Below, one piece after another: positions 3,001-61,868 of a stretch of DNA of 64,000 bases; within the stretch, counting starts at the first letter, position 1, and every line of letters begins with the position of its first letter. The position numbers were made by a program, and so were the translations under genes. The stretch spans positions 50,716,001 through 50,780,000 of the forward strand of contig OZ024741.1 of assembly GCA_964016885.1 (NCBI GenBank), given 5' to 3'. Under the pieces are notes generated by a model. It did not search any database. It saw nothing but the letters and a program-made list of their open reading frames with translations, and was not told where the DNA came from. The stretch is from Eledone cirrhosa. Lineage: Eukaryota.

Positions 3001-3937
3001 TATTTGGTTTTTTATTCACCATTATCATTTTAACACATTCAGCCAGAGAGATATTTATACATGAGTTAATTTCTCTCTGGAAGATTTCGTTGAGGGAAAT
3101 TTTCAATTGTTTATACTTTTGATTATCATTATCGATAGTATTTTCCACAACAGTCGAGGTAGACTTGGATGGTATACGTGGTGTCACATTTATTTGATTA
3201 TTATTATTATTTCTTCGATTATTATTATTATCGATAGTGTTTTCCCCAGCATTCGAGGTAGACTTAGATGGTACAGGTGGTGTCAAGTTTCTTACAGGCA
3301 TAGTTGTTTCAAGGCGCTGTTCGACCTGGCTGCTAGGAAGTCTAGTAGCATGGCGATCTGTAGCACGTGTTGTTGATTCCATGTTTGTTGTGGGGGACTT
3401 ACAATTAATAATATTTATCTTATTTTTACGTTCAACAAACGTCGCTTGTTGGCGTAATTGTTTCGCTGTCAAATAATTTAGCTCTGGGTGTATTTCGTCC
3501 CAGTGTAGCTTCATTCTTTTCATATAGCCAATGGAGGGATTGTTTTTTGCCATTTTATAACAATTAAATAAATCATTATTAAGTTCGCAACTCCAAGAGA
3601 AATGCGATTTATAATTTCGGTTTCTTCTGTAGCTACAACTGAATAAAGTTTGATTACCTTCTTTGTTATTTGTCTTCGATACTTCCTTAATTTTCTTGTT
3701 GATGTTGTGTTCAGCCATGCTGTTTGTAGCAAATCCTTGTAAAATGAATTATGTATTTAGTCGGATATCTCTACGAATTCGAATAAAAGGTGTCTTCAGA
3801 AGGGATAGTTAGAAGAATAACCAGTTATTCAACCTGGCTGTAGTTGTGGCATTACTGTCGGAGATAGTATTCATCTTAAATTTAATAAATAGTCTCCCAC
3901 GCCAAAATATGTGACTGATCGCGTTGACTGATGGAAT
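1..3937 (-). mobile_element. R4/Dong-type non-LTR retrotransposon (RT + REL endonuclease), near full length, frameshifted; 3' end runs off the window
   Basis: Minus-strand ORF pieces 3718-2876, 2776-1346, 1280-1026, 1075-659 and 585-88 give an N-terminal W..E.N..L..CY..GY.KRM...W domain, RT motifs (NYRPIAC, WLDYRKAFDSV, GIFQGDSLS, FVDDLK), a CCHC-like knuckle (CRLC...H...), RHD and RPDIM...EISCP...K. The 5' end abuts (TGTA)n at about 3945. Confidence 0.93.
1346..2776 (-). pseudogene. Reverse transcriptase domain of the R4/Dong element
   Basis: 476-aa ORF with RPIA, DYRKAFDSV, QGDSLS, FVDD and YRYLG; flanked by frameshifts. Confidence 0.95.
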
Positions 3938-3939
3938 AT

Positions 3940-4076
3940 ATGTGTGTATGTATGTATGTATGTATGTATGTATGTATGTATGTATGTATGTATGTATGTA
4001 TGTATGTATGTATGTATGTATGTATGTATGTATGTATGTATGTATGTATGAATGTATGTATGTATGTATGTATGTA

Positions 4077-4137
<61 letters not shown>

Positions 4138-4230
4138 ATATGTGTATGTATCTGTATATGTATATGTATATATCGGGGTATAGATGTGTATGTGTGGATA
4201 TAGATATATATGGATATGTATATATATGAT
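3940..4230. repeat. (TGTA)n/(TG)n/(TA)n compound microsatellite
   Basis: Direct reading. Confidence 0.97.
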
Positions 4231-8031: not shown

Positions 8032-8158
<127 letters not shown>

Positions 8159-8366
8159 CGTTTCTGAATTTGTTTAGCAAGATTCTTTATCTGAAAACGT
8201 GTGTTGAAACCGATATTGTTATACTTTGGGAGGGTCATGTTGCCAATAAGAAACACACGCACCAGTTGCTTTCACTTCAATTTATTATAATAAATTTATA
8301 AATTTAGGAATTTATAAATTTCTGGTTGGTTGGTTGGTTCCACAACCAGATAGTTGTTTATATATT

Positions 8367-8409
8367 GTCAAAGTTCTTTCGTCACACATTCTGTGACCTC
8401 TTCAGTGAC
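8367..8409 (-). ncRNA. Minimal type I hammerhead ribozyme (family A)
   Basis: GTCA CTGAAGA G GTCACA-GAATG-TGTGAC GAAA GAAC TT TGAC. Confidence 0.8.
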
Positions 8410-11400
8410 TGGGGATTCTTTTCTTTGTTTTTGTGCCTCTCCTTTGTTCTGTCCTACGCCATTTTGTTTCTGTGTGTCTGTTGTGTGCTCAGTCTGCGCA
8501 TGCGCCACATCCGGATGTCTGTGTGTGTTTATATTCGTTTATTTATTTGTTTATTTACATGTTACCGGTTGGTTGTTTGTTCTATGTGCGTGTGTGTTTT
8601 CATTCTGTCCTTAATTGTAAGTTGTGATGTTGCTGTTCCACTCATATTTTCTATTTAATTTTGGTTGTAATTCTTTTATGTTTATTGCCTCTGTGATTTG
8701 TCTAAACATTGCGTCTTTTCTGTGTGTAGATTCTATTTTTATTTCTATGTTCTCTAATTTACTCTTATGTTCTATTTTAGCATGTTGGTAGAGTACAGAT
8801 GATTCTTTACTATCTTGAAGGTCTCGCCAGTGTTCATTTATCCGTTCCCCTACACTACGAGCTGTCTCACCTATGTACACTATATTTTTGTCTCTACATT
8901 GTCCTTCAGTACATCTTATGCTATATACTACATTTCTAGTTTTACAGTTAATATGGGGGCTTATTTTACAGGTTATACATTTCTTATCTATACAGGGGGG
9001 TCTTTGAAAAGGGTATGCCTTGCTAATAAGTGTTTTTACGGAGGTACCTGGTCTTTCTACTATCTTAATATATGAGTTTATGTTTATCTAGGGCCCTTCT
9101 AAATTTGTAAGCTAATTCAGCTCTAGGGGTTGTATCGATGAACATTACACTCTGGTATTTATTGCTATCATACCATGAGTTTATTCTATTAGCCTTATTC
9201 CTAGTTCTTTCTATTCTATTCCAAAATTTGCTCCTATACAAGGGGCAGGTCCCATTTGTGTCATTATTTACCATTTTTTCCCATTTGGTTCTGGCTCCTC
9301 TATACACTCTGCATACGGTGGATGAAGTGTTGTATGTGTCTCTCTAATTCTTCGGGGTTGCACATGCGGGACACGTTTCTCATCACCCGTACCAAATCCG
9401 AAATCAGTATGTTGATTTTGGTATGGTCCGAAACAGCTGAGTTTCGGTGGATCAGATGTTTGGAAGTCATGGGTTTGGCATAATGGGAATGGAGGATTTG
9501 TTTTTTGTTATTAATGGTATCTAACCAGAGCTCTGTGTCTAGTAAGGTAATCGATGGTTGGGGTGTTTACTTGGGTAGTCTATAGTAACTCTAATACTCT
9601 GGTGGATGGAGTTAGCTATTTGCTGGAGGCTTTCCATTGTGTTTTTCTCTAGTTGCTGACTGTTCTCTAGTGGGGGTGTCTTAACTACGATGTTTATATC
9701 ATCAACGTAGCGGGAGTACATTATCAGGGTTAAGAGGTCTTCTAATTGTTCTTTAATTTTAAGTTTAAGTCTACTGTCCCACCATACCATGAATAAGTTA
9801 GCTATGTCGCCAGCAATGCTAACACCAATGGCTGCTCCTTCTTCTTGGGCATATGTTTTTCCATTAAATTTGAACATATGTTCCTTGAGGGTTAGTTTTA
9901 TGCTGGCCCCTACCGCATGTGCAATCATTTTCTTCAGTTCATCGTGGTTTTAGGGTGTCCGTATGGCTCTGGTCCACCCGTTCCATCTATCTGTGTGGGT
10001 TTTCTTGGCCATTGAGGTAATGGTAGGTGGTCTGCTTCTTGCTGGTCTTGTAGGGCACAGGTTGCTAAGGTCATATGTGTCTAGGTAATTATTACTATAG
10101 GTAAGTTTAAGTAGGAGTCCCAGCTCACTGGTATCAGTCCAACGGAACTCAACATTGCTCTCACTGATCATTTCTACGCATTTCTCCACAGCAAAATCCA
10201 CGTCAATAGATGGATACAGGGACACAACATCCATACTACCTATTATGCAGTTTGTTAGGTCCCTAGATCGGTTACTCTCGCCGATTCTGCTGAGGAGGTC
10301 CTCCGTGCTGTCACATACATCTGGGGACATTTCAATGATGGGGCGTATGATCAGGGAGAGGAAGTAGGACAGTCTGTAGTTACTAGCAATGTTAGCTCCA
10401 CAGACTGGCCGTGTTGGTGGTCCCGTGACAGGGTCACTGCCCGTTTTATGGTCTTTTCGAAGCCCATACAACGCCGGCACGTCATTGTTCCAGGCCTGGA
10501 AGTTGTTGAACAGTCCTTTTGTTGGGCTGCATTATATTCGTCCACATCACCATATGGACATTGAGGGCTTTTTCTCTATCCTCATGCTCCTGTCGTGTTA
10601 CCTCTCTTGTGTTAGTGATGTGGGGTTGCATTGCCTGGATGTAGTTTGGCAGGCTGTCAACCGACATTCTGCCAGACTTGTCTGTTGGAAAGCATGCTAT
10701 CTCTCCATTACGCGAGCGCTGCATGAGCTTACGCAAGCCATTTGCAGATTTTTCTCCCAGTTGCTGGGCCTCCATTCTATTATGCTTCTTGCTATACTGT
10801 TCTATAATATTTCTAAGTTCGGATCTAGCTAAACTAAATTGTGCTTCTGTTTGTTCATCGACCTGCGACGGCAATTGCGTGCGTTTGTTAAATGGTAAAG
10901 TCGTGGCGTGGACTCGTCGCAGGTCGAACGACTTATCGGAGGGATTATAAAAAGTAGAGTTCCAGGCTGCTGCTTTATGTGTACTAGTGCTATTGTTATT
11001 GTTAGTTGTGTTGTTTCTATTTCTATTTCCACCAACAGCCTCATGGTTGTTTCTATGTCTCTCATTATTACTCCTGTCTCTTTCCACTGGCTCATTGTTA
11101 TTATCTACTCTATTTTGTGTGTCTGTGTGTTCGTCTTGGTTATTTTCTTTGTCCATAGTCTCCCTTCTCCTTTTAATCCTATTACTTTCCCTTATTTCTG
11201 TGATTTCTGTGCTACTGTCATTACTTGTTTTCTGTGTCTGTGTGTTTGTTAAGATTGTGGTGGTGGTGAGAGGCATTGAATGTGTGTGTGTTGTTGTTGT
11301 TGATGTGTGCTGTTGTTGATATGTGTTGTTGTTGTTGTCTCCGTGTGTGTTATTATTGTTGTGTGTTGTTATTGTTGTTTGTGTCTGCGTGTCTGTTGTT

Positions 11401-12404
11401 GTTGTTTCTGAGTATGTTATTATTGTTGGTGTGTGTGTTGTTGTTATTGTTGTTTGTGTCTGTGTGTCTGTTGTTGTTGGGATGTGTGTTGTATATGTGT
11501 GTGCGTATGTTATTACTTTTGTTTTTGTTTTTGTTTTTGAGGCTCCAACGTAGTTTTGTAAATGATTTTTCTATTTCTGACAGACAACTAATCACATTTA
11601 CCTTCTTGAATGTCGCAAATTTCGGCGGTAGTTGTAATACAGATAATTCATCAGGATCTATTGCCGTGTTGCCGTATATATTTGTGTTGTTGTTGTTGTT
11701 GTTGAACTCATCTGTTAATGAGGTGTCGGCCATATTTATACCGTCAATTTTGTTGCGATATGTATTGGTATTCTCTACAGTATCCTGATTTAGTTTTATC
11801 TGCTTAAGCCACTTTAGTTTCTTGTTAAAGTGCTTATCACATTCTTGAGCAATGTACTGTTCTTCAGGACGTATAAGGCTTATAAATATTAGTTTTTCTC
11901 TTGGTGTGGTGATCCTAGTTATTTCTTGTATTAGGTTACGCTTATGTTTTTCTTGATGACTTAATTCTCTATAGATCTTCTTTTTTATGTTTAGAATTAG
12001 TGTTCGTTTTAGCCTATCTGCTTGCTTTTCGGTGAGTTGTAATCTTCTTACATCGGTGTTGATGGTGTTGGTGTAAACTCGGGACGAGGCATATTCTTTT
12101 ATGAAGTGTAGTTGTCGAGATGTTATTGTTTTTCGTAGACAACAGAACATGGTGGTTTTCAGTATCTTGTTAGCCTGGCTAAGGCTTACGATATTTCGTT
12201 TCTGAATTTGTTTAGCAAGATTCTTTATCTGAAAACGTGTGTTGAAACCGATATTGTTATACTTTGGGAGGGTCATGTTGCCAATAAGAAACACACGCAC
12301 CAGTTGCTTTCACTTCAATTTATTATAATAAATTTATAAATTTAGGAATTTATAAATTTCTGGTTGGTTGGTTGGTTCCACAACCAGATAGTTGTTTATA
12401 TATT

Positions 12405-12447
12405 GTCAAAGTTCTTTCGTCACACATTCTGTGACCACTTCAGTGAC
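12405..12447 (-). ncRNA. Hammerhead copy in the 5' pseudo-LTR, core mutated (CTGAAGT)
   Basis: Same as 8367-8409 apart from one core substitution. Confidence 0.7.
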
Positions 12448-14004
12448 TGGGGATTCTTTTCTTTGTTTTTGTGCCTCTCCTTTGTTCTGTCCTACGCCAT
12501 TTTGTTTCTGTGTGTGTGTTGTGTGCTCAGTCTGCGCATGCGCCACATCCGGGGTCTGTGTGTGTTTATATTCGTTTATTTATTTGTTTATTTACATGTT
12601 ACCGGTTGGTTGCTTGTTCTATGTGCGTGTGTGTTTTCATTCTGTCCTTAATTGTAAGTTGTGATGTTGCTGTTCCACTTATATTTTCTATTTAATTTTT
12701 GTTGTAATTCTTTTATGTTTATTGCCTCTGTGATTTGTCTAAACATTGCGTCTTTTCTGTGTGTAGATTCTATTTTTATTTCTATGTTCTCTAATTTACC
12801 CTTATGTTCTATTTTAGCATGTTGGTAGAGTACAGATGATTCTTTACTATCTTGAAGGTCTCGCCAGTGTTCATTTATCTGTTCCCCTACACTACGAGCT
12901 GTCTCACCTATGTACACTATATTTTTGTCTCTACATTGTCCTTCAGTACATCTTATGCTATATACTACATTTCTAGTTTTACAGTTAATATGGGGGCTTA
13001 TTTTACAGGTTATTCATTTCTTATCTATACAGGGGGGTCTTTGAAAAGGGTATGCCTTGCTAATAAGTGTTTTTACGGAGGTACCTGGTCTTTCTACTAT
13101 CTTAATATTGAGTTTATGTTTATCTAGGGCCCTTCTAAATTTGTAAGCTAATTCAGCTCTAGGGGTTGTATCGATGAACATTACACTCTGGTATTTATTG
13201 CTATCATACCATGAGTTTATTCTATTAGCCTTATTCCTAGTTCTTTCTATTCTATTCCAAAATTTGCTCCTATACAAGGGGCAGGTCCCATTTGTGTCAT
13301 TATTTACCATTTTTTCCCATTTGGTTCTGGCTCCTCTATACACTCTGATTTTATCTCTCTGATTGTAACCAGAGAACTGCATACAGTGGATGAAGTGTTG
13401 TATGTGTCTCTCTAGTTCTTCGGGGTTGCACATGCGGGACACGTTTCTCATCACCCGTACCAAATCCAAATGAAATAGCTCGAAGAAAGACTATTCTGAG
13501 CCGTGTAATATAGGTTAACACACTGCTCCTTCGTTGAGCTGATTTTAGCCCCATACAAACGGCTGTTATTTCTAGCAGCACGAGTATGTGGCTAGCTAGA
13601 CACTGGATAACCGTATGAGGTTACCTCGTGCGCTAAACAGTCTTCCTAAATATTTTGAAGTGGAACATACCAATTTTGATAGTGCTTGCTGAGGAGATCA
13701 AAATGCGGTATTTTCTTCCACTTTTTCATTATTCGAAACATATTTGGATTTTAAGGTTTAAACCTGTCTACGGAACAGGTTTGATTTTGAAATTTAAATT
13801 TGTCCAAGCACTACGGCCATTGCCAATACAATTTGTTTTTGTTGATTTATGATATATTATCTTAAGTCATGATAGGCAAACTGTAATATTATTATTAGTA
13901 TATTTCTATCTAGCTAACTTGGTCATTTACAATACAAACATAAATATGAGGATATTTGTGTTTATCAAATATATTGATTTGTGTTAACCTATATTATGTA
14001 TATA

Positions 14005-14644: not shown

Positions 14645-16246
14645 TTATACTTCTCTTAGGTCAGTGTTGTTTGTTTGGGTGTTGTTGTTGTTCCACTCAT
14701 TCTTTCTGTTTAGCTTTGGTCTTCTAATTTCTATTTCACTGGCCTCTCTGATTTGCCTATCTGCTGGGTCATTCCTATGTTTAGATATTATTCTAATTTC
14801 TATGTTGTCTATGTTACCGTCATGATGTTGTCTAGCATGTTCGTATAGTACTGACCCGTTTTTTCGTCCTTTTAGTTCCCCCCAGTGTTGGTCTATCCTT
14901 TCACCTATGCTACGAGCTGTCTCACCTACGTATGTTGTTGTCGTGTTTCTGCAAGTACCCTCTGTACATCTTATGCTATAGACTACGTTTCTAGTTTTAC
15001 AGTTTATCCGGGGGTTCACCTTACATATGATACATTTCCTATTGGTACAGTGGGTTTTCTTAAAAGGGTAGGTTTTGCTGATCAGGGATTTTATGGTGGT
15101 TCCTGGCTTTTCTACCACCTTTATTTTTAAGTGGGTCTTTCTCAGGGCCTTTCTACACTGGTTAGCTAATTTCCCTCCAGGGGTGGCGTCCACAAACATG
15201 ACACTCTGATATCTCTGGTTGTCGTACCATGATGTGGCCTTCCCTATCTTATGTCTAGCCCTATCTAAGCTATTCCATGATTTGCTCCTGTATAGTGGGC
15301 AAATTCCTTTCATGTCCAGTTCTATGAGGGTCTTATACTTTTCCATGGCTCCTTCGTATACTCTGACTCTGTCTCTTTGGTTGTAGCCAGAGAACTGCAT
15401 GCGGTTGATGAAGTGTTGGATGTGTCCTTCCATTTCTGTTGGGTCGCACATGCTGGACACATTCTTCATCACTCGTACCAAATCTGCGATCAGAATATTA
15501 AACTTAGCACTACTGGACATTGCTGAGTTTTTGAGTATCAGGTATTTGGAGGCCATGGGTTTAGCATAGTGTGAGTGGAGAATTTGGGCTCTCTCGTCTA
15601 TAGTGTTAATCCAGAGTTCTGTGTCTAATACAGGTAGTCTATTGTTAGGGTGTTTGGAAGGGAAGTCTATAGTTACAGTTATACTCTGGTGTATGGAATT
15701 AGCTATCTGCTGGATGCTTTCCATCGTGCTACGTTCTAAATCAAACTTGTTAGTGCTCTCTAGTGGGGGTGTTCTTATAACTATATTGATATCGTCTACA
15801 TAACGAGAGTACATGATGAGGTCTATGGAGCTTTCATTAAGGAGATCTTTAAGTCTCCTTTCCCACCATACCATGAAAAGGTTGGCAACATCGCCAGCTA
15901 TGCTGACGCCGATGGCTGCTCCCTCATTTTGGGTGTAGATTTTCTCATTGAACTTAAATATGTGGCCCTTTAGGGTAGTTTTGATACTAGCCCCTATTGC
16001 ATGTGCGACCATTTTTCTTACCTGATCAGTGTTTTGGGGGGTCCGTATAGCTTTGGTCCACCCAATCCACCTTCCTATGGGAGTCTTTTTAGCCATTGAG
16101 GTTATGGTGGGGGGTCTACCTCTTATAGGTCTACTAGGGCAGAAACATCTAAGGTCATGGCTGTCTAGGTAGTCAGTGTCGTAGGTAAGTCTAAGTAGGA
16201 GGCCCAGTTCGTCTGTGTCGACGTCGCAGAACTCCACCTCACTCTC
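14645..16246 (-). pseudogene. PLE RT C-terminal half + GIY-YIG endonuclease, uninterrupted ~530 codons
   Basis: 542-aa ORF in the track; its first ~9 residues come from the inverted segment. Confidence 0.92.
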
Positions 16247-16522
16247 AATATCTGTTTCGACACACGATTTCATATAAAAAACCTCGCAAAACTAATTCAT
16301 CGCCGCTATATATATATATATATATATATAATGTTTTATATAGAAATGGCTTCTACAGGACTAGAACTGTTTCACTTAAGAGAAATCATCAGGAAAGGGC
16401 TTTCCTGATATATGATGTTTACACTCTACTAATGTATTGAGTACCTTACTAATTGTGGTTACTCCCGATTGAACCCAGAACTCTCAAACATTCTCTCTCT
16501 CTGTCTCTCTCTCTCTCACACA

Positions 16523-16722
16523 NNNNNNNNNNNNNNNNNNNNNNNNNNNNNNNNNNNNNNNNNNNNNNNNNNNNNNNNNNNNNNNNNNNNNNNNNNNNNN
16601 NNNNNNNNNNNNNNNNNNNNNNNNNNNNNNNNNNNNNNNNNNNNNNNNNNNNNNNNNNNNNNNNNNNNNNNNNNNNNNNNNNNNNNNNNNNNNNNNNNNN
16701 NNNNNNNNNNNNNNNNNNNNNN
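16523..16722. other. Assembly gap (200 N)
   Basis: N run. Confidence 1.
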
Positions 16723-17672: not shown

Positions 17673-17717
17673 TCATTAGTGCGAACTATCAAAGTAAAGT
17701 GGTAACTGTATAATAAT

Positions 17718-17907
17718 TGTTTCTACATTTGGCACAAGGCCAGCAATTATCCCAGTACATCACTGGTACTTTATTTTATCGACCCAGTAAGGATGAAAAG
17801 AAAAGTTAACCTCAGCGGGATTTGAACTCAGACCATAAAGGCCCGTAACGCATTGCTGCAAAGCATGGCGTCCGACCCTCTACCGATACCGCCAATCCAC
17901 CGCCCCT
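17718..17907 (-). mobile_element. tRNA-derived SINE (Nin/Deu-like central domain)
   Basis: B box GAGTTCAAATCCC, central CTTTTCATCCTTAC.GGGTCGATAAAATAAAGTACCAG; imperfect TSD TGT(A/G)TAATAAT. Confidence 0.85.
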
Positions 17908-18090
17908 TGTGTAATAATACAATATATTAGGTAAGAACTATTTTGGGTAAAACCAATGTACCTCCGAATCAGGGTAAAGTGGTAAAGTGTAATAATACAA
18001 TATATTAGGTAAGAACCATTTTGGGTAAAACCAATGTACCTCCTAATCAAGGTAAAGTGGTATCTGTGTAACAATACAATATATTAGGTA
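17908..18090. repeat. ~78-bp tandem repeat, about 2.3 copies
   Basis: GTAA(T/C)AATACAATATATTAGG at 17911, 17989 and 18068. Confidence 0.9.
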
Positions 18091-19808: not shown

Positions 19809-19982
19809 AGGCGGCTTGCGATAGAGCGTCAGACACCATGATTTGCAGCATAGTTATGGCCCTTTGCGTTCTGAGTTCAAATCCGCCGAGGTTAACTTTG
19901 CCTTTCATCCTTACGTGGTCGATAAAATAAAGTACCAGTGATGCACTGGGGTAATCGCTGGCCTTGTGCCAAAAGTAGAAAC
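19809..19982 (+). mobile_element. tRNA-derived SINE
   Basis: Same family as 17718-17907. Confidence 0.8.
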
Positions 19983-20310: not shown

Positions 20311-20340
20311 TGTTCTGTGTATGAACGTAAATAAATAATT

Positions 20341-20496
20341 GTCTCTACTTTAGGCACAAGGCCAGCAATTATCCAGTGCATTACTGGTACATTATTTTAT
20401 CGACCCCGTAAGGATGAAAGGCAAAGTCAACCTCGGCGGGATTTGAACTCAGATCGTAAAGGGAGGTAACTATGCTGGAAAGCATAGCGTCCGACA
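20341..20496 (-). mobile_element. tRNA-derived SINE, 5'-truncated
   Basis: Same family as 17718-17907. Confidence 0.8.
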
Positions 20497-21970: not shown

Positions 21971-22154
21971 TTAAGGCGGTGGATTGGCAGTATCGATTGA
22001 GAGTCAGACACCATGCTTTGCAGCATGGAGGTATGGTCCTTTACGGTCTGAGTTCAAATCCCGCCGAGGTTAACATCCTTACGGAGTCGATAAAAAAGCA
22101 CCAGTAACGTACTGGGGTTGATTTAATCCACTTTCCCCTCCTCCAAATTACCAA
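21971..22154 (+). mobile_element. tRNA-derived SINE with 16-bp TSD
   Basis: TSD TCATTATTTGTCTTCA at 21955 and 22155. Confidence 0.9.
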
Positions 22155-23637: not shown

Positions 23638-23683
<46 letters not shown>

Positions 23684-23689
<6 letters not shown>

Positions 23690-25118
23690 CGTTTATGAAT
23701 TTGTTTAGCAAGATTCTTTATCTGAAAACGTGTGCTGAAACCGATATTGTTATACTTTGGGAGGGTCATGTTGCCAATAAGAAACACACGCAAAAAAACA
23801 GATCCTCCATTCCCATTATGCCAAGCCCACGACTTCCAAATATCTGATCCACCGAAACTCAGCTGTTTCGGACCGCACCAAAATCAACATACTGATTGCG
23901 AATTTGGAACGGGTGATGAGAAATGTGTCCCGCATGTGCAACCCCAAAGAACTAGAGAGACACATACAACACTTCATCCACCGTATGCAGTTTTCTGGTT
24001 ACAATCAGAGAGATAAGATCAGAGTATATAGAGGAGCCAGAACCAAATGGGAAAAAATGGTAAATAATGATACAAATGGGACCTGCCCCTTGTATAGGAG
24101 CAAATTTTGGAATAGAATAGAAAGAACTAGGAATAAGGTTAATAGAATAAACTCATGGTATGATAGCAATAAATACCAGAGTGTAATGTTCATCAATACA
24201 ACCCCAAGAGGTGAATTAGCTTACAAATTCAGAAGGGCCCTAGATAAACATAAACTCATATATTAAGATAGTAGAAAGACCAGGTACCTCCATAAAAACA
24301 CTTATTAGCAATACATACCCTTTTCAAAGACCTCCCTGTATAGATAAGAAATGTATAATCTGTAAACTAAGTCCCCATATCAACTGTAAAACTAGAAATG
24401 TAGTATATAGCATAAGATGTACTGAAGGACAATGTAGAGATAAGAATATAGTGTACATAGGTGAGACAGCTCGTAGTATAGGAGAACGGATAAATGAACA
24501 CTGGCGAGAGCTTCAAGATAGTAAAGAATCATCTGTACTCTACCAACATGCTAAAATAGAACATAAGGGTAAATTAGAGAACATAGAAATAAAAATAGAA
24601 TCTACACGCAGAAAAGACGCAATGTTTAGACAAATCACAGAGGCAATAAACATAAATGAACTCAAACCCAAATTAAATAGAAAGCATGAATGGAACAGTA
24701 ACATCACAACTTACAATTAAGGACAAAATGAAAACACACACGCACATAGAACAAACAACCAACCAGTAACATGTAAATAAACAAATAAATAAACAAATAT
24801 AAACACACACAGACACCTGCATGTAACACATGCGCAAACTAAGCACACAACACACACAAAAATAAGATGGCGAAGGACAGAACAAAGGAGAGGCACAAAA
24901 ACAAAGAAAAGAATCCCCAGTCACTGAAGAGGTCGCAGAATGTGTGACGAAAGAACTTTGACAATATATGAACAATCGTCTGGTTGTGGAACCAACCAAC
25001 CAACCGGAAATTTATAAATTCCTAAATTTATAAATTTAATTTATAATAAATTGAAGTGAAAGCAACTGGTGCGTGTGTTTCTTATTGGCAACATGACCCT
25101 CCCTAAGTATAACAATAT
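23684..25118 (+). mobile_element. PLE family A, 5'-truncated, with inverted terminal arm (23684-23791 minus, 23791-25118 plus); HHR at 24920-24962
   Basis: Highly similar to 8153-9510; GIY-YIG ORF at 24451-24720; both ends in (TA)n. Confidence 0.93.
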
Positions 25119-25149
25119 ATATATATATATATAAATATATATATATATA

Positions 25150-25196
<47 letters not shown>

Positions 25197-25547
25197 GAAT
25201 ATATTAGAATCAAAGAGTTCATTATTATCAACCCGAACAACCACAAATAAATAATAGACCAGAAATGCTCGAAGCAGACTGGTTATCACAATGACTTCAC
25301 GCATGAGTATTAGATACAAGCAGGCCAGTTTAGGAAGTACACACCGATCGTTCATTTAATTTTGAACTGTTTCAGCTCTACATTTGAAAAGTGGGTGATA
25401 GCCCTGAAATATCATGTTGAAATACATTGGATAAAACATTACTTTGTTTTGTGTCATTTGTCATCATTTTACCGTCGTATTTTTCTGCCGCATTGTACCA
25501 GGTTTTTGAAAATTATCAAATATATATATACATATAAACACACACAC

Positions 25548-26844: not shown

Positions 26845-26933
26845 TGTGTATGTGTACGTACGTATGTATTTGTGTATGTGTGTATGTATGTATGTTTTTC
26901 TTTCTTTTAATTTCGAGTATGTATTTATGTATG

Positions 26934-26967
<34 letters not shown>

Positions 26968-28096
26968 TGTATGTATGTATGTATGTATGTATGTATGTGT
27001 ACGTACGTATGTATTTGTGTATGTGTGTATGTATGTATGTATGTTTTTCTTTCTTTTAATTTCGAGTATGTATGTATGTATGTATGTATGTATGTATGTA
27101 TGTATGTATGTATGTGTACGTACGTATGTATTTGTGTATGTGTGTATGTATGTATGTATGTTTTTCTTTCTTTTAATTTCGAGTATGTATGTATGTATGT
27201 ATGTATGTATGTATGTATGTATGTATGTATGTATGTATGTATGTATGTATGTATGTATGTGTGTATGTATGTATGTAAGTATGTGTGTATGAGTGTATGT
27301 ATGTATATATGTATGTATGTGTGTGCGTATGTATATATGTATGTATGTATGTGTGTATGTATGTATTTATGTATGTACGCACATATCTATGTATGTATGC
27401 ATGTATGTACGTATATATGAATGTATGTATTTATTTATGTATGTATGTACGTATGTATGAATGTATGTATGTATGTATGTATGTATGTATGTATGTATGT
27501 ATGTATGTATTTATGTATGTATGTACAAATTTATGCATGTATTTATGTATGTAATAATGTATGCATGTATGTTTGTATCGTACATATGTATATATGTTCG
27601 TGGCTATGTGTGTGCATATATCCATTTGTATGTGAGATTATGTGAATTTGTGCGTGAGTGTTTATATGCGTGTATATATGTCTATTTGTGCTGATGTGAG
27701 TATGTCATTATATTTGTATATGTGTCTGTGTGTTTCTGAACTTGTTTGTATTCGTCAGAGCATCTAAATTGTGTGCGTGTGTGTGTGTGTGTGTATGTGT
27801 GTGTGTGTGTGTTTGTTTGTGTGTGTCTATAAACATCGTGTATGTATATATGTATGTATGTATTTGTGTATGTATGTATGTATATATGTTTGTATGTATT
27901 TGTGTATGTATGTATGTATATATGTATGTATGTATGTATGTATTTGTGTATGTAAGTATGAATATATGTTTGTATGTATATATGTATGTATATATGTTTG
28001 CATGTATGTATGTATGTATGTCTGTATGTCTGTTTGTATGTATGTATGTCTGTATGTATGTGTGTATGTATGTATGCATGTATGTATGTATGTATG

Positions 28097-29125: not shown

Positions 29126-29473
29126 TATTACGAAGTTAAAACTGCAACAGGAATCTCCCAGAAACTTATAGTTTCTCTTGAAATCACATTCGATACACAA
29201 TTTTACTTTTTCCCGAGGAGCTGAATTTTCTTGAATTGAAACTCTGAGTTTCATTCTGCCGATTATTGAAACGATTCAAATAAAGAAGCAGCATGACAAT
29301 ACAAAGGTAGGCAGAAACGTTCAACAATGAAAGTGAGGAAAAGACGGTGTGGGAGAATAAAGAAAAGACCAAGAGGAGAGAGGGGAGTTCACAAAACATA
29401 TGTGAGAAGAAGCACGATACAGAAAAGACGTGTTGTGTAAGTATACATTACAGATACACTTATGTATATATGA

Positions 29474-29508
<35 letters not shown>

Positions 29509-29704
29509 TGTATGTATGTATGTATGTATGTATGTATGTATGTGTGTATGTATGTATGTATGTATGTATGTATGTATGTATGCATATATGTATGTATGTA
29601 TGTGTGTGTGTGTATGTATGTATGTATGTATGTGTGTATGTATGTATGTATGTATGTATGTATGTGTGTATGTGTGTATGTATGTATGTATATATGTATG
29701 TATG

Positions 29705-30341
29705 TTCTGGTTTTATAATTTCACAATTTTTTCCCCAATATAGAGAGAGTCGGTTTCTAACATAGACACAAGACTCTCTCATTGGAATTTACACAGCTAG
29801 GTAGATTATGTATGCATGCACGCATGTGTGGATATGGATGTTATTGTATGTGTGGATGTGTATGTTTTGAGTTGTATGTGTGCATATGTATATGCTTTGT
29901 ATCTGTACATGTCTATATGCAGTTATTAGATTCAACATTTTTGGAATGATTTACATATTTTTACTGTTCCATTAATGGATTGTACTTGTAATTTCGTAAC
30001 TAGTTGTGTTCTTCCTGTTCCCGTGAAGCCTAGCTTCTCAAGATTTGTATTGAGGCAGTTACTAACATATCCCAGTGCCCCAATAATCACAGGCATAAAT
30101 CTGAAGGTGCAATCAGGGTGGAGTATCTGCAGATTTCTCATCAGTTCTGCATAAATATTCTCCTTTTCGCTAATCTTTGATATTATATTGGCATCTGCTG
30201 GGCAGCTAATTTCCACTACTGTGCATGCTTTCTTCTCCCATATCATAATATCTGGTCTGTTATGCCTGCATTTTGTTGGGGTTTTTACTGGAACATTCCA
30301 CCAGTACTCTTTCATATAATGTACATGGATGTCTTCCACAT
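29705..30341 (-). mobile_element. 5'-truncated copy of the first R4/Dong family (REL domain + complete 3' UTR)
   Basis: 29873-30341 closely matches 1-472; ORF 29932-30339; (TGTA)n on both sides. Confidence 0.93.
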
Positions 30342-30416
30342 GTATGTATGTGTGTATGTATGTATGTATGTATGTATGTATGTATGTATGTATGTATGTA
30401 TGTATGTATGTATGTA

Positions 30417-33400
30417 TTATCTTTTTCTCTTAATTTCGAGTATATTTTTTTTGACCGGCCACCTTCCTGGTGGCAAGGTTGTAAAAGAAAAGAAATTGTC
30501 ATCCCTTGAATCGCAAGAATGTTTTGCAAATTTTGAAGGTGCCAGCTATCGCAGCCATTTGTAGACTATGAATTAGGGAGCTGCGCTTTTTGTCCGCAAA
30601 TCCAAGTTCAGTCATACTTTGGTCCAAGCGGGTTGGTATATAACCCGTAGCTCCAATAATGATGGGTATGAAGCTAAAGGTGTATACTGGATGTGTAAAC
30701 TCCTCATCAATGGTCCGTAGATGTCCTCCTTCTCCTGTATTTTTCTGACAACGTTTACATCAATTGGGCAGCTGATCTCCACAACAGAACACGTTTTCAA
30801 TGTGTGGTCCCAAACAACAATATCAGGCCGGTTGTGCTTTAATTTGGTGGCAGTTTTTATTTTCAGGTTCCACCAGTATTCCTTAGTGCCATCTGTCTCA
30901 ATATATTCTTCCTCGTTTGTTGTTAATTTTGTTTTCCGAAGTGCGTTCCAGATGGTTCTAGCTATCCCATCGTGTCCCATGGGGAGGTAGTAGCGAGATG
31001 ACATTCTTTCGCATTTGGCAACAATGTGGCTTACATCCTCGATCTTTGTTTTATATAGCCTACATTTATTGTCAGCTGCTGGCCCTCCTCTTTTGTGCAG
31101 CAGATATTTGGTAGGGAGTTCTTGTTCCTGTATTGCATAGAGATATCCCTCAAGGTGTGATGTCATAAACTTGTCGGAACTCCATGCCAGGCTTTTTGAG
31201 TGGTTTATCCCCTCTATGGTCTGTGTTTTACGCCTCAAGTATCCATGCACAACTTTTTCTGTAAATTGGTCAATTTTTTTTATCTTGTTTGAACATTGAA
31301 TAGGATCTTCCAATTTCTCTGGGTGAGAGATTTATATCACGCTTTATTCCATAACTCTCCTCCAGATCAGTCGCTATTCTAATGATATTTTTTTTTTCAT
31401 GCTCATAAACCTGGGTAAGATGGTTGCCAACCTTTTTCCTCTGTTGAAGGTGTTGCTTCAGTGTTACTATTCGGGTCTCATATGTTGTTGATATTGATTT
31501 TAGACCCCGGCCACCTTCCTTGCGTGAGAAGTATAGCCTATCCACATCACCATTGATGTTAAAATTCCCAGTAACACTGAGAAGTTTTCGAGTTCTAACA
31601 TCCATCTCACTTAGTTCTTGCAATGACCAGTTCAGCAGGCCAAATGTTGGCGTTAGAATTGGCACAGCATAAGTATTGTGGGCAATGTATTTGTTGTACG
31701 CTGACAGTTCTGATGACCATATTTTCTTTACTCTTCTGAGGTATTCAGTTCTGGTTCTCTCCTTATTTATGGGTCCATCATATCTGACATTCTCATCCTG
31801 TCCAAGATATCTGTAGTTGTCACCTGACTGTAGAGGTTGTATTGTCAGGCCGTTCATCTCTAGATTTCTAGAGGAGGGCACATCTTTTCCATGTTTTACT
31901 GCCAAATATGCACACTTGGACTCACCAAATTTCATTTTGATGTCGGTTGAAAATTGTGTAATGAGATCCAATTGTTTCTTGATGTCATTGATATTTGGCC
32001 CATACAACTTCAGGTCATCAACAAAGAAAAGATGGGAGATACTTCTGGGCCCACTTCTTTGTCCACCTTGTTTCCTGAGTAGGTAAGATAGTGGATTCAG
32101 TGAGAGAACGAAGAGTAGCACTGACAAGCTATCACTCTGAAAGATGCCCTTCTGGTAATGTATCTTATCAGTCTTAACTTGCTCCTTCTCACCTCTAAGG
32201 ATCAAATTGGTGTACCAGTTCTTGGTCAGGCGTTCAACAGCAGCTACAAATGGTTGTGGGACTTTAGCTAACTGTAAAGCCTTAATAATCCACCCATGAG
32301 GTACACTATCAAATGCTTTTTGATAGTCCAGCCACACCACAGTTATGTTTCTGCGATTCTTTGTTGTTTTTTCCTGAATCATTTTGTTAGTTAGTAGGTG
32401 ATCTATGCAACCCCACACCTCCCTCTTTCCACCAGCTTGCTCAGGTGTTATGATGTTGTTGGTAGCACAGTGATCCTGTAAGAACAGGTTAAGGCACCCA
32501 GTATATAATTTATACATGATGTTTTGGCAGGCTATTGGGCGGTAATTTTTAGCAAGGGTGGTTTGGCTATTTTTGGGAATGAGGAGAGTAGTGGCAGTTG
32601 ATAACCATCTGGGCAGTTCTTGTGTGCCTTTAATGGTTTCTGTAAAGAGCCGTATGAGATCTTGCCGATAGAAAGTGAAATTCTTCAACCAGTATCCTGT
32701 AATGAGGTCTGGCCTTGGCGATTTCCTATTCGACATTTTCTGTAGAGCTGTTTCCAGTATTGACCCATCTCTGTCATATTGTTTTGTCTGGACATGTTGG
32801 CAGTAGTCCTGTTCCAGTTCTTTTAGCCAATTAGTTTGTCTGTTGAATCCGTCATCCGTTTCCCATACAGATCTCCAGTAGCTCTCAACCTGTTCTTTTG
32901 AAGGGGTGTCATTTAAAGGGATTGAGCTTTTGCCACCGAAGCTGCGATAAACTGATTTAGGATCTCTGGCAAACAATCTATTTAGCACTTGTCGTTTATG
33001 TGCTGTTGACTTATATTTTAGTCTTTCTGTTGTAGCTGTGAGTTGTTGTTTAACTGGTGTAATTTGGAGTTCAAAGTTTTAAATTTTGTATCTCCAAATC
33101 GTCTCTCTAACTTTTTGTTTAGGTCTTCCTGGTGTCGTGTGAAGCTGCTCTCTATGTTGCATTTCATAACGACTGCGATGTGTGAGATACTTCGTCTCAG
33201 GGACAACATTTTGCTTTTTAAATTTCGCATCCACGCTGGTTCAGGCTTTCTGTTTGTATCTTGATTGCGTGGTTTTAGATGTGTGTTATATGATAGCAAT
33301 GTGACAGCTGAAACATATAACAAAATATTAAGAGTTTCAAATGTCGTTTCTACACCTTTAGATCGTATAGCCTTCAGATAATTGCTAGCTATTTCGTTCA

Positions 33401-34646
33401 CCGCTTTCAATTCCAATTTAGTGGGTTCTTTACTGATTCTGGTGTTGTATGGTCTGTCAACAACATTAAGGTTGTGTATCTCTTGAAACATATCGTTCCA
33501 TATCACTTGTAGGGTGTCCACAAGTTTTTGGTGCTCTGTTTGTTCAGTAGAGTCATGAATTTCAGCCTTCGTGTTGATGTGGTGACAATTACTACTAGAG
33601 TAAGCTGACTTTTCTCGCTGTTCTTCAGTGGAAGTGGGATGGATTTCAGCAAAATTGTTGGTGAGCTGTTCACTGTTAGATTTAGCTGGCCATTCTCTTT
33701 GTCTGTCAGTGGAGGTGGGGTGGTTGTCTACAAGGGCTGTATTTGTAGTATCACTCAATTCCGTTAGATGTATCAATTTACATCTAATGATACGTTTTGC
33801 CTGTTCATTTAAATGCTTTGGAGAAAAGTCTAATTCTAGGTGTTTGGAGTTCCATAAAGTTTTTAGCCTTTGCATAAAACCGAACTTTTGGGGTTCAGAT
33901 TGTTTGTATACTTCATATAATACTTTGTTAAGCTCGTAGCTCCACTGTATACAGCGGTTGTAGTTGCGATTTGGTCGAAGAAGACTTTTACTTTTTGCCA
34001 CGATGAGTTCGTCTATTCACTAATATTTCGTATTTATTTTTCAAAATAGTCGATGATCTTCTTTAAAAGTTTCGACAAAGTTCTGTCAGAATCAAATTTA
34101 AAGTTATTCACAGCTTGGGTAATATTTCTTTTCAGTTAGTTTTTAATTCTACAACTGTGTTTTAAACGTTGTTCTTGAATCGTTTGAATCGAGAACAAAA
34201 AGAACCGTTACTTAGTATATTTCTTTATGAATGTAATATTTCTTTATGAATGTAATAACAACGCTGTATTTATATGTTAAAGTTTATGTATCATTCATAT
34301 AAATAGGTGTTCTACAACTTATTCACAACATATTCACAGTTCAAACACTTATGTTTTTGTTTCTGAATCGAAAACGTTACTTGTATATTTCTTTATAAAT
34401 GTAATATAACAACGTTGCATTTATATGTTAAAGTGTATGTATCGTTCATATATCATAAGTGTATGTATCGTTCATATAAATAGGTGTTTTACAACACACT
34501 TACAGTTCAAACACTTATGTAGAATTATTGTATGTAATCTTACTGCGTAATGTAGCTCAACTTTTTCCAATATATGGTATGTTGCCTTCATGTAAGCCGT
34601 AATTACACACGTCCGATTATTGGACACTGACCACAACGGTCGCCAG
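30417..34646 (-). mobile_element. Second R4/Dong family, full length (~4.2 kb), few frameshifts
   Basis: ORFs 34001-33018, 32988-31270 (RT: WLDYQKAFDSV, FVDDLK) and 31313-30612 (knuckle, RPDIV, EISCP). The 5' UTR has a ~170-bp tandem duplication at about 34205-34520. (TGTA)n on both sides. Confidence 0.95.
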
Positions 34647-34710
34647 TATGTATGTATGTATGTATGTATGTATGTATGTATGTATGTATGTATGTATGTA
34701 TGTATGTATG

Positions 34711-35313
34711 GTCACATATGTCAGGTCACCAGTTGGTGCTACTGGTAACATGTATCCCAGTACAACCTGTCTCATGGTCGGGTCGTTGGCGACTAAACTG
34801 GCAACCCCACCAAGGTTTCTTGGTGAGGAGGGGGACTTTGGACATCCTGCAGGACTAAAAATAAAACCTGTCGAAGGCCAAAGGAGCTCTTAAGAGTCAA
34901 TGGCCATCCAAAATCATCCTGAGAGATGACCCCTTAGCCTTTATCAAGGCAGAATTCTAGGAGAAGGAAAACTCTGATATAACACCTGCAACTCTGATGG
35001 TATCCAATGATGTTGACTTGTTCTTCTTTTTGGTAAATATCATCTTGGTTAAGAGAGTGGGACTGGCTTTGTGCAGTGCCTTTGCTCACGGCACAGGCAT
35101 TGCTTTATATCTGGAGATCTCTCTGCACTTGTCGTCACATGGTACCATGGGCTCAGCACTATGTGTCAATAATTGTCACAAGTGTAGTGTTTGTACCAGA
35201 GTTTTCAAGTCGCTGGCTGGACTAAAAAGTCACACTCGTTCAGCGCATCGGTAGGGGTTCTCCTACATGGATATAAAGTAGTGGCCGTACTCGAAAACGA
35301 GTTGGCAGCCACC
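34711..35313 (+). mobile_element. Non-autonomous RTE-derived bipartite element with (ATGT)n tail
   Basis: RTE-like 5' UTR motif CTAGGAGAAGGAAAACTCTGA, C-terminal C2H2 finger CSVCTRVFKSLAGLKSHTRSAH*, 3' hairpin; second copy at 40022-40630. Confidence 0.8.
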
Positions 35314-35887: not shown

Positions 35888-37678
35888 CAGGGTAAAGCCA
35901 ACATTTGGCCGTAACGGACTGCTTTTTATAGTAGCACGCAACCTGCCAATGTCCACCTTACTACCCCCCTGTTGATTACATATCACGTGATAATTCTTCC
36001 ATTTGTAATTTATACTGATATATATAATTATATACTTACCAAGCGACAATGAATTATACACAGAGATCCCGGACATGACTGCAGCCCAGATCGAAAAACA
36101 GACCAACTCCATCTGGTTCGATATCTGTAGGAGAAGACAACTCCCAAATAAAGTTAAGCTCAACTACACCACTAGAAATAGCAGACTGCCCACTTTCTAC
36201 CACCTCATCAAGACCCACAAGAATAGCACTAATACGCAAATAAGACCCATCGTCTCTAGCATAGAAGGACCCCTATACAAAATTTCCTGGTTCCTCTCCC
36301 AGATCCTCAAGCCTCTACTCTCCACCTTTCCCGGGCATGTCAGTAGCTCCGACGAAGTTATACGTAGACTACACCAACTCCAGCCAGAACAACTTAAACT
36401 AAATAAATATGCTTTTAGCCTCGACGTTGTCTCCCCGTCTACACTACAGTCCCCGCTCATCCAGCTGTCGATTTATTGACGGACTGCGTGGTAGCAGAGG
36501 ACATCCACTGCTACGGCCTCCACCCGACGGACATACACCAGCTTTTGTCCTTCACAGTAGACAACACGTACTTCACCTTCCACCACCACACATACAGACA
36601 GACAACAGGATTACCCATGGGACCCAGCCTATCAGGCCTGCTGGCCATCACCTACATGAACCAGCTAGAATGCCGAGCCCTCAACACCTGCCATTCCCAT
36701 ACCTTCTTCACCCGATATGTAGATGACATACTCATCCTTACATCATCCCGTGAGGAGGCAGATAAAATATACACAACATTCTCCAGCATGGACGCCAGTA
36801 TAAAGTTCAGCATGGAACACCCCGATGACCGCGGATCCCTATCCCTACTGGACTTCCATCTCAGGGTAACAGAGGAAGGCAACATCCACACCTGCTTCTA
36901 TAAAAAAGCTGCCAGCAGGGACCTGTTCGTACATTTCAGATCGGCCCTCCCACTCGGTGCCAAGTTCGGATACATAAGGAACAAACTGGCACGTATCCGG
37001 AACAAATGCACCGACGCTAGAGACCGAGACACACACACCACACATTTCCTGGAAGTACTCAAACTGAACGGATACACGACATCCACCACAAACCGTGCCA
37101 GAAAGAACAGAGGACATCACACCCGAGGCACTAACACTTGCTTCCTGAAGCTCCCACACTTCAGTAAAGAAACAACAACAGCCATCTGCAGAGCTATCAG
37201 ACGAGAGGGACTAGATATCCAACTGGCCCACTCAGGTCCTTCTCTACGCGGTCAGCTAACCAAAAGACACTCCACCAGACATGACAACTGCTGCAGACTA
37301 GCCAACTGCCCCATCAACGACACAGACCTATGCCACCAGGCTTACGTCGTATACAGACTAGAGTGTGACAAATGCAACAACTTCTACGTAGGTAGCACCA
37401 CCAGACCACTCCACATAAGAATAAAAGAACACCTCAATACTAACGCTTCCTCATTTAAGAAACACCTAGCTAGTTAAATGCAAAAACACCGACAAAACCA
37501 TAACAGTTAGGATAGAAACTAAGGAAAGAAACCTCGGCAATCTTAGAATTAAGGAAGCACTAATTATAGACAAAACACAACCACCAATTAATAATAGACT
37601 AGAACTCAACACCCAATTTATAACTTGATAGAGCTCCTAGCCCCATATTTACACCCCCCCCCCCCCCCACACACGCAC

Positions 37679-40021: not shown

Positions 40022-40630
40022 GGTGGCTGCCAACTCGTTTTCGAGTACGGCCACTACTTTACATCCATGTAGGAGAACCCCTACTGATGCGCTGAACGAG
40101 TGTGACTTTTTTAGTCCAGTCAGCGACTTGAAAACTCTGGTACAAACACTACACTTGTGACAATTACTGACACATAGTGCTGGGCCCATGGTACCATGTG
40201 ACACGTGCAGAGAGATCTCCAGATATAAAGCAATGCCTGTGCCGTGAAGCTTTTATACTGAGCAAAGGCACTGCACAAAGCCAGTCCCACTCTCTTAACC
40301 AATATGATATTTACCAAAAAGAAGAACAAGTCAACATCATTGGATACCATCAGAGTTGCAGGTGTTATATCAGAGTTTTCCTTCTCCTAGAATTCTGCCT
40401 TGACAAAGGCTAAGGGGTCATCTCTCCCGGTGATTTTGGATGGCCATTGACTCTTAAGAGCTCCTTTGCCCTTTGACAGGTTTTGTTTTTAGTCCTGCAG
40501 GATGTCCAAAGTCACCCTCCTCACCAAGAAACCTTGGTGGGGTTGCCAGTTTAGTCGCCAACGACCCGACCATGAGACAGGTTGTACTGGGATACATGTT
40601 ACCAGTAGCACCAACTGGTGACCTGACATA
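40022..40630 (-). mobile_element. Second copy of the RTE-derived non-autonomous element
   Basis: Reverse complement of 34717-35313; in (TACA)n. Confidence 0.85.
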
Positions 40631-50545: not shown

Positions 50546-50559
50546 AGTAGTCAATATAA

Positions 50560-50773
50560 TGGTTTCTGATTTAGGCACAAGGTCAACAATTTCGGGGAGG
50601 GTAAAGTTGAGTAAATCGACTCCAGTGCATTACTGGTACTTCATTTTATAGACTGTGTTAAGGATGAAAGGCAAAGCTAACCTCGGCGAAATTTGAACTC
50701 AGAACGTAAAGGGACGTAACTATATACCGCAAAGCATTTTGTCCGACGCTCTATCAATTCTCCCAATACCGCC
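50560..50773 (-). mobile_element. tRNA-derived SINE
   Basis: Same family as 17718-17907. Confidence 0.8.
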
Positions 50774-50819
50774 ATACCAATAATAATAGTATTCGCGCCA
50801 TCACAATCTCCACCCAAAT

Positions 50820-54600: not shown

Positions 54601-54692
54601 ATTTAAAGAACCAGGCCTCCCCAGCCCCGATGTTCTCATTCAAGGTAACACAACATGTTCACAGAATATCCTGTATTATCTGATACAAACAA

Positions 54693-54902
54693 GGGCGATG
54701 GATTGGCAGTATCGGTAGAGCGTCAGACAGCATGCTTTGCGACAAAGAGTTACGGCCCTTTGCGTTCTGAGTTCAAATCTCGTCGAAGTTAGGTTTGTCT
54801 TTCATCCTTACGGGGTCGATAAAATAAAGTACCAGTAATGTACTGTGGTCGATTTAGTCGACTTTTGCCCTCCCCAAAATTGCTGGCCTAAATCAGAAAC
54901 CA
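54693..54902 (+). mobile_element. tRNA-derived SINE, full length
   Basis: Same family; imperfect ~18-bp TSD ATTAT(C/A)TGATA(C/G)AAACAA. Confidence 0.88.
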
Positions 54903-55009
54903 TTATATGATAGAAACAATAGTTATGAACTTATCACATACAGTTGGTTACCTGGTGAGTCGAGAGGTTTGGTAAATTGATAGTTGGTTCATTACATTGT
55001 TAGTATGTT

Positions 55010-59699: not shown

Positions 59700-60069
59700 A
59701 CTATATATGTTCATATATACGCGGGGACATAGAAATAATCGGGCTGGATACCCGATCACGCGGTTAAACCACTGGGAGTGAAGGACCCCTACCCTTTGTC
59801 AGGGCATTTTTCTAGGAGAAGGGAATTCAGGAAACTGGGATAACTCCGATATAAAACCTGCAGGTCAGTTGTTATCGACGATGTTGATCTTTTCTTCTTT
59901 TCGGGTTATAGCTACTGTTGCTCAGAGAGTGGGATTGGCTCAGTGCACAGTCCTTTCTCACTTTAAAAAATATCTTCACGCACAGGCATTGCACGATAGA
60001 ATTAATTAATAATTATTAATAATAGTATATCGTGCAATGGCCATACTCGATAACGAGGGGGCAGCCATC
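59700..60069 (+). mobile_element. Diverged RTE-derived non-autonomous element with (AT)n tail
   Basis: Shares TCTAGGAGAAGG, GATGTTGA.(T)TTCTTCTTTT, AGAGAGTGGGA.TGGCT, GCACAGGCATTGC and the 3' TGGCC.TACTCGA.AACGAG..GGCAGCCA end with 34711-35313; 5' limit approximate. Confidence 0.75.
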
Positions 60070-60073
60070 ATAT

Positions 60074-61433: not shown

Positions 61434-61468
<35 letters not shown>

Positions 61469-61474
<6 letters not shown>

Positions 61475-61794
61475 CGTTTCTGAATTTGTTTAGCAAGATT
61501 CTTTATCTGAAATCGTGTGTTGAAACCGATATTGTTATACTTTGGGAGGGTCATGTTGCCAATAAGAAACACACGCACCAGTTGCTTTCACTTCAATTTA
61601 TTATAATAAATTTATAAATTTCGGAATTTATAAATTTCTGGTTGGTTGGTTGGTTCCACAACCAGATAGTTGTTTATATATATTGTCAAAGTTCTTTCGT
61701 CACACATTCTGTGACCTCTTCAGTGACTGGGGATTCTTTTCTTTGTTTTTGTGCCTCTCCTTTGTTCTGTCCTACGCCATTTTGTTTCTGTGTG

Positions 61795-61796
<2 letters not shown>
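61469..61796 (-). mobile_element. Solo pseudo-LTR of PLE family A; HHR at 61685-61727
   Basis: Near-identical to 8153-8478, with the same junction to (TA)n. Confidence 0.93.

Positions 61797-61865
<69 letters not shown>

Positions 61866-61868
<3 letters not shown>

Follow-up and report, generated by a model that had tools for sequence, protein, structure and literature searches.

Retrotransposons of the R4 clade, which lack long terminal repeats (non-LTR elements), include Dong of Bombyx mori, DongAg, DongBg and Darwinula Dong1/2, all described as inserting into (TAA)n (PMC7998251, PMC3812793), and Dong is reported to combine this target with a Myb-like domain (PMC7998251). Microsatellite targets are also described for elements of other clades that carry a restriction-like endonuclease (REL) and use other repeats, namely Togen, in (TG)n, and some HERO families (PMC4640811), and a review lists ACAY (Waldo), AC, TC, TTC and TAA as repeat targets (PMC3812793). 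Among molluscs, R4-Dong elements are reported almost solely from cephalopods (PMC10294476). Octopus vulgaris is stated to have 51 Dong-R4 families over 92.7 Mb, five of them recently active (PMC13282606), and the target of octopus Dong-R4 is not named in the relevant passages of PMC13282606, PMC9115989, PMC8967140, PMC10294476 and PMC12988792. Here we describe R4/Dong elements from a 64,000-nucleotide stretch of the Eledone cirrhosa genome (assembly GCA_964016885.1, contig OZ024741.1, positions 50,716,001 to 50,780,000, forward strand; the whole stretch is called the window below). They lie in (TACA)n arrays in one orientation, a real feature, and most likely represent a tetranucleotide-targeting sub-lineage of R4/Dong.

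Insertions in the Window and Their Junctions

The R4/Dong copies in the window (table 1) belong to two divergent families, as a preliminary description of this DNA had recognized: A and B are 57% identical over the trimmed reverse transcriptase (RT) and 50% identical over a long piece of the open reading frame (ORF), and the truncated copy C matches the 3′ end of B with 95% identity across 474 bp. The same description had placed five junctions (3937, 29705, 30341, 30417, and 34646) in a tetranucleotide array with the sense strand always reading (TACA)n, and all five are as described. The 5′ junction of B is slightly degenerate, reading …TACACACATA up to the junction and TATTCC beyond it, and that of C has a 2-nt microhomology with the repeat. 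Beyond these five junctions there is a sixth insertion, a 3′ stub of ∼25 nt that likewise has TACA on both sides and matches the 3′ terminus of A at 19 of 20 nt (E 0.001). It is likely an extremely short 5′-truncated insertion, and because its three copies stand in near-identical context, indicating tandem amplification, they are counted as one. A variant 3′ end similar to the stub is seen among the loose read ends listed for two sequencing runs (X3 and X4).

Table 1. Positions of the R4/Dong copies, their parts and their flanking arrays in the window
Feature	Position	Strand	Remarks
Copy A, full-length R4/Dong-clade non-LTR retrotransposon	30418-34645	minus	
5′ untranslated region (UTR) of A	34002-34645	minus	136-bp internal duplication, short terminal hairpins, GGACGTG motif
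ORF of A, single	∼34001-30499	minus	broken by three frameshifts
Myb/SANT-like domain of A, predicted three-helix	33756-33956	minus	preceded by motif R(R/P)NR(D/N/K)Y; model confidence (pLDDT) mostly >90
RT of A, FVDD	31825-32580	minus	Pfam RVT_1 E 3e-23
CCHC zinc knuckle of A	31011-31064	minus	second Cys is Tyr; zf-RVT E 4e-5, under curated cut-off
Restriction-like endonuclease of A, RPD…EISCP…K	30499-30840	minus	interrupted by frameshift near 30684
(TATG)16 array	34646-34710		5′ flank of A; sense strand of A reads (TACA)n
(TATG)19 array	30341-30417		shared: 3′ side of A, 5′ side of C
Copy C, 5′-truncated family B member, endonuclease part and 3′ UTR	29706-30340	minus	
(TATG)61 array	29461-29705		3′ flank of C
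Copy B, second, divergent family	1-3936	minus	ORF decayed; 3′ end beyond window
(TATG)57 array	3939-4163		5′ flank of B
A-type 3′ terminus, ∼25 nt, three tandem-amplified copies (26896, 27045, 27162)	26896-27186	minus	

The window is AT-rich animal DNA, rich in microsatellites and in remains of long interspersed elements (LINEs) and Penelope elements. Of its positions, 3.3% are no more than 10 nt away from a TATG run (at least three units, same strand), the arrays beside the elements counted. The estimated probability of the observed association by chance is ∼1e-3 if only the two full-length 5′ junctions are taken and ∼1e-6 if four are; of the four, that of C is not fully independent because its array is common to A. 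Arrays of (AT)n total 1696 bp, of TATG/TACA 1438 bp, and of (AC)n 958 bp, and none of the R4/Dong junctions lies in an (AT)n or (AC)n array. Every junction in the window is with TACA and none with the (TAA)n used by Dong; the window contains neither a (TACT)n array nor a TAA run reaching 16 nt.

Domain Structure and Affiliation

Copy A had been described as nearly intact. It is indeed full length, but its frame changes near 33051, 31270-31320, and 30684, its LPxRH motif is altered, and its CCHC knuckle is damaged by the Cys-to-Tyr change. Other copies represented in the read runs have indels at the frame-change positions of A. Copy B is more decayed, and the CCHC knuckle, damaged in both, is intact in relatives. 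Placed in order, the ORF pieces of A and B cover the ∼1150 amino acids of intact relatives from end to end, and six metagenome loci (L001, L002, L003, L005, L007, and L011) have intact ORFs of 1134-1175 amino acids. Reconstruction of A is unnecessary since such naturally intact relatives exist.

The assignment of these elements to R4/Dong in the preliminary description is supported by fold, motifs, and, with the sampling given below, tree. They have a single long ORF with a non-LTR RT, in the N- to C-terminal order Myb-like domain, RT, CCHC knuckle, and REL (PD…E…K), and no Pfam match to an apurinic/apyrimidinic endonuclease (APE) domain. The N-terminal domain, without zinc fingers, is predicted to be Myb/SANT-like: the structural neighbors of its model include Zeste (Z 5.4), the SANT domain of ISWI (5.1), GT-1 (5.0), and TRF1 (4.8) among many Myb, SANT, and trihelix entries at middling scores (Z 4.3-5.4), and Foldseek returned no match for this model at E<=0.001. 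In RT trees, which did not include B. mori Dong, Rex6, or Ascaris R4, the elements fall together with an element of Pediculus humanus and further proteins from insects, the deeper branching differing between the two trees; a Pediculus element is taken as R4/Dong in PMC7998251. The target is found at both 5′ and 3′ junctions in fixed orientation in the window, in reads, and in relatives, as is typical of site-specific REL elements. The best named protein match is from Argonauta hians (62%).

A sequence profile of 80 relatives matches R2 proteins best among Protein Data Bank entries and L1 ORF2 more weakly, and the model of the intact relative P0002 (pLDDT 90) gives the same ranking. The R2 elements R2Bm and R2Tg, the source of the model of target-primed reverse transcription, are accordingly the closest solved structures by profile and fold. 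Unlike the present elements, R2 targets 28S ribosomal DNA and has N-terminal zinc fingers besides its Myb domain. Like Dong (PMC7998251, PMC3812793), the present elements have a single ORF with a Myb/SANT-like domain at its N terminus, an RT, and a REL, and a microsatellite at both ends. Unlike Dong, their target is TACA/TACT rather than TAA, and they form a separate clade, sharing ∼36-42% RT identity with the Pediculus element and with L015 and L018, which are flanked by TAA/TAAA. The clade is also set apart by the motif R(R/P)NR(D/N/K)Y, which precedes the Myb-like domain in most aligned members (degenerate in L011, P0013, and P0025) and in the alignment is missing from P0029, P0033, P0045, and L015. 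The Dong-R4 repeat class of octopus is probably the same class as A and B.

The Waldo elements belong to the R1 clade and are of the APE type, so that their endonuclease differs in type from that of REL elements. The ACAY target of WaldoAg1/2 and WaldoFs1 covers the ACAT/TACA repeat (PMC3812793), which was thus already the target of an APE-type family, pointing to convergence on the same repeat. We found no TACA/TACT-specific R4/Dong element in the literature searched, with Repbase, Dfam, Kojima and Fujiwara 2004, and Fell et al. 2025, a screen of 4,464 genomes (via the review PMC13586686), lying outside this scope and possibly recording one.

The 5′ ends are poorly conserved in DNA sequence, an alignment of six elements having four invariant columns. 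An HDV-like ribozyme is described in B. mori Dong (PMC3774820), whereas none was detected in the present elements: the window gave no Rfam match at gathering score, and six loci gave only repeat-driven microRNA and small nucleolar RNA matches below it. An L3-like ribozyme motif was absent from eight clade 5′ ends, although a divergent ribozyme could escape such a search. In six of eight clade members (A, L002, L003, L005, L007, and L011) GGAYG(T/C) occurs no more than ∼55 nt from the 5′ end and often follows a short hairpin. Drosophila LINEs have a downstream promoter element to which this motif is similar.

Relatives in Metagenomes

A metagenome scan yielded 42 loci, 30 of which were placed in an RT tree of 99 sequences; the other 12, omitted because their RT cover was below 230 amino acids, have no TACA or TACT arrays. 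Sixteen loci together with A, B, and P0001-P0025 form one clade (FastTree support 0.988; UFBoot 96 on a 32-sequence subset), separate from the TAA/TAAA-flanked L015, L016, and L018. A terminal array is visible in 10 of these 16 loci, and it is TACA in two and TACT in eight, with no third repeat type. The array is at both ends in L005 and L007 (TACA) and in L003 (TACT), visible only at the 5′ end in L001, L002, and L011, and at the 3′ end in L006, L009, L012, and L013 (all TACT). Outside the clade, arrays are of TAA/TAAA (L015, L016, and L018; also L032, L036, L038, and L039, omitted from the tree) or TA (L035), and none of the scanned loci there has a TACA or TACT array.

Two assemblies, which have a near-identical element in common (L006/L012), account for the TACT loci, and both TACA loci come from one assembly. 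B is placed with TACT loci rather than as the sister of A, at 0.959 in the 99-sequence tree and a UFBoot of just 70 in the subset. Repeat type tracks the host, not the element tree, so that either the protein or the RNA tail could set the target. Two apparent flanks were set aside, the 5′ (TAAA)n of L015 as not being a clean flank because a tRNA-like sequence follows the array and the 5′ (ATA)n of L009 because it resembles Asn-rich coding sequence. The tRNA-like sequence (L015:73-160), between (TAAA)n and a Dong-like ORF, may be an insertion of a short interspersed element (SINE) or the head of a tRNA-headed element. At its 5′ junction L011 has TACA units within the (TACT)n array (L011:1-60), which fits relaxed recognition of the fourth base.

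Raw Reads across the Junctions of Family A

Four of 13 listed sequencing runs were aligned to A with 16 nt of repeat on each side. Depth over family A rises from 5′ to 3′, 38-44-fold in X3 and X4 and 9-fold in X1, the pattern expected of a high-copy, 5′-truncated LINE. Run X11 consists of raw reads of a species that carries family A. In it, 633 reads extend past one or other end of the stretch and depth at the 3′ junction is 332, counts from which at least 301 of 333 reads near the full-length 5′ end would align through the 16-nt repeat. At 30432, 834 reads have long loose ends, more than the run-over count, which therefore cannot contain unaligned overhangs. Depth in the last bin is 241, closer to the value for passage (244-250) than for a stop at the junction (208-214), corresponding to a passing fraction of 0.75-0.91, and the 5′-end reads have about 40 start places. 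The loose ends listed for these runs are dominated by chimeras of restriction-site-associated DNA (RAD) sequencing at AATT sites.

The preliminary description had stated that if 5′ flanks of copies elsewhere were not enriched for TACA, the arrays would be just element tails. Looked at indirectly through the X11 counts, this condition did not refute the claim. Because 5′-end reads of family A, by these counts, pass through TACA, the arrays are not mere tails.

Target Recognition and Alternative Explanations

We consider it very probable that targeting is real, whether by a protein or an RNA route. The reading we favor, with a probability of roughly 0.6 and by analogy with R2, is that the element's own protein recognizes and nicks TAC(A/T) repeats and that insertion proceeds by target-primed reverse transcription in fixed orientation in (TACA)n. 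The N-terminal Myb-like domain, perhaps with the R(R/P)NR(D/N/K)Y arm, would bind the repeat; the endonuclease would nick the strand reading TGTA, fixing the polarity of insertion, and the 3′ end so made would prime cDNA synthesis on the element RNA. Synthesis of cDNA would reach the true 5′ end or stop sooner, where the element has microhomology with the repeat (2 nt in C, ∼4 nt in the stub). The fourth base is probably read in a relaxed way, so that the abundant repeat of the host would be used; in the window TACA arrays are present and TACT arrays absent. The earlier claim of apparent specificity for (TACA)n in fixed polarity is supported by the window, reads, and relatives, but the target of the lineage looks like TAC(A/T), given the eight clade relatives in (TACT)n.

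Several observations weigh against this reading. Six of the 16 clade loci lack an array, and L001, L002, and L011 extend ∼320-830 nt beyond the stop codon with no 3′ array before the contig ends. The relatives derive from about two hosts rather than ten (about three counting the present one). The read support is derived from counts in one RAD (reduced-representation) run with ligation chimeras, and the Myb fold matches of the N-terminal model all have Z <6. Furthermore, repeat flanking is not unique to proteins of the REL type, since an unrelated RTE-like element in the window that has a TATG tail (see below) also has TATG at its 5′ side in both of its two copies. This last point also favors RNA-guided targeting, in which nicking is loose and the element RNA, extended by read-through into a repeat tail, pairs through this tail with the nicked strand, so that a family keeps to the repeat it trails. 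The non-sister A and B, with 57% RT identity, are both in TACA, and L011/L013 and L003 (48%), from related assemblies, are all in TACT; some R2 proteins, moreover, are described as redirectable by RNA homology arms (PMC13586686). Yet TACA and TACT have TAC in common and the clade uses no third repeat type, when tail-led drift would be expected to arrive also at (AT)n, (AC)n, and other abundant repeats, and the clade has its own conserved motif beside the Myb-like domain. RNA guidance is the most serious competitor, though on balance rather unlikely.

Insertion without sequence specificity, with the arrays being tails or parts of the elements at the 5′ end too, is much less probable. Microsatellite tails are common in LINEs, octopus RTE included (PMC9115989), and in the window the array 5′ of C doubles as the tail of A, and that 5′ of A adjoins another element. 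However, TACA stands at the 5′ junction of both the 5′-truncated C and the 25-nt stub, a 57-unit 5′ array belongs to B alone, and at least 90% of 5′-end reads enter the repeat. The Dong ribozyme, in addition, is described as removing upstream repeats rather than carrying them (PMC3774820), and no such ribozyme was found here by the searches above. That the elements gathered passively in a region rich in repeats, or that the assembly was mis-joined through TATG arrays, we rate as the least probable explanation and very improbable in itself. Among the microsatellite classes of the window TATG/TACA ranks second in abundance, and metagenome contigs often end inside arrays, but at base resolution the junctions abut the arrays, all in one polarity, the junctions of family A are crossed by raw reads, and the sole N gap of the window lies at 16523-16722.

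Protein-based recognition of TAC(A/T) may also be part of a wider scenario, which we advance only tentatively as a possibility. An old, unrecognized R4/Dong sub-lineage would have moved from TAA to TAC(A/T), with the target in each host set by a relaxed TAC-reading protein and a read-through RNA tail programming the fourth base; such elements would be naturally re-targetable, and the abundant, still active Dong-R4 of octopus would be confined to (TACA)n.

How REL retrotransposons change target is an open question with relevance to R2-type gene-insertion tools. The R4/Dong clade here offers a series of TAA, TACA, and TACT repeats together with naturally intact ORFs (L005, L007, and L003) and a candidate specificity motif, so that experiments can tell apart what the Myb-like domain, the endonuclease, and the RNA tail each contribute. 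If A and B correspond to the abundant Dong-R4 families, the insertions of these families in cephalopods would go to microsatellites, which bears on claims of somatic activity in the brain, and insertion of Dong-R4 into microsatellites may hide new copies from short-read callers.

Other Repeats in the Window

Two non-autonomous elements of ∼600 bp, 94% identical and with a C2H2-like end, lie at 34711-35313 (plus strand) and ∼40022-40630 (minus strand); we take them to be RTE-like from their motifs. Read in its own sense, each copy is bordered on both sides by (TATG)n, a polarity opposite to that of the R4 elements, and the flanks of the two differ past the arrays. They are possibly a second TATG-associated family. 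A shorter and more distant RTE-like relative at ∼59730-60070 (plus strand) ends in (TA)n, not (TATG)n.

Penelope-like copies, with RT and GIY-YIG domains, are found at 8087-10126, 12191-13470, 14679-16330, 23639-25204, 36060-37650, and 61440-61796. Several of them start or end at (TA)n arrays (8087, 23639, 25204, 61440, and 16330) and others do not. A dispersed repeat of ∼150-200 bp, probably a SINE or a miniature inverted-repeat transposable element, has six copies that are 74-87% alike (17712-17928, 19819-19982, 20334-20495, 21972-22149, 50554-50776, and 54665-54908). Finally, a 180-bp inverted repeat (61866-62045 and 62816-62995), its arms 98% identical and ∼770 bp apart, possibly marks a DNA transposon.

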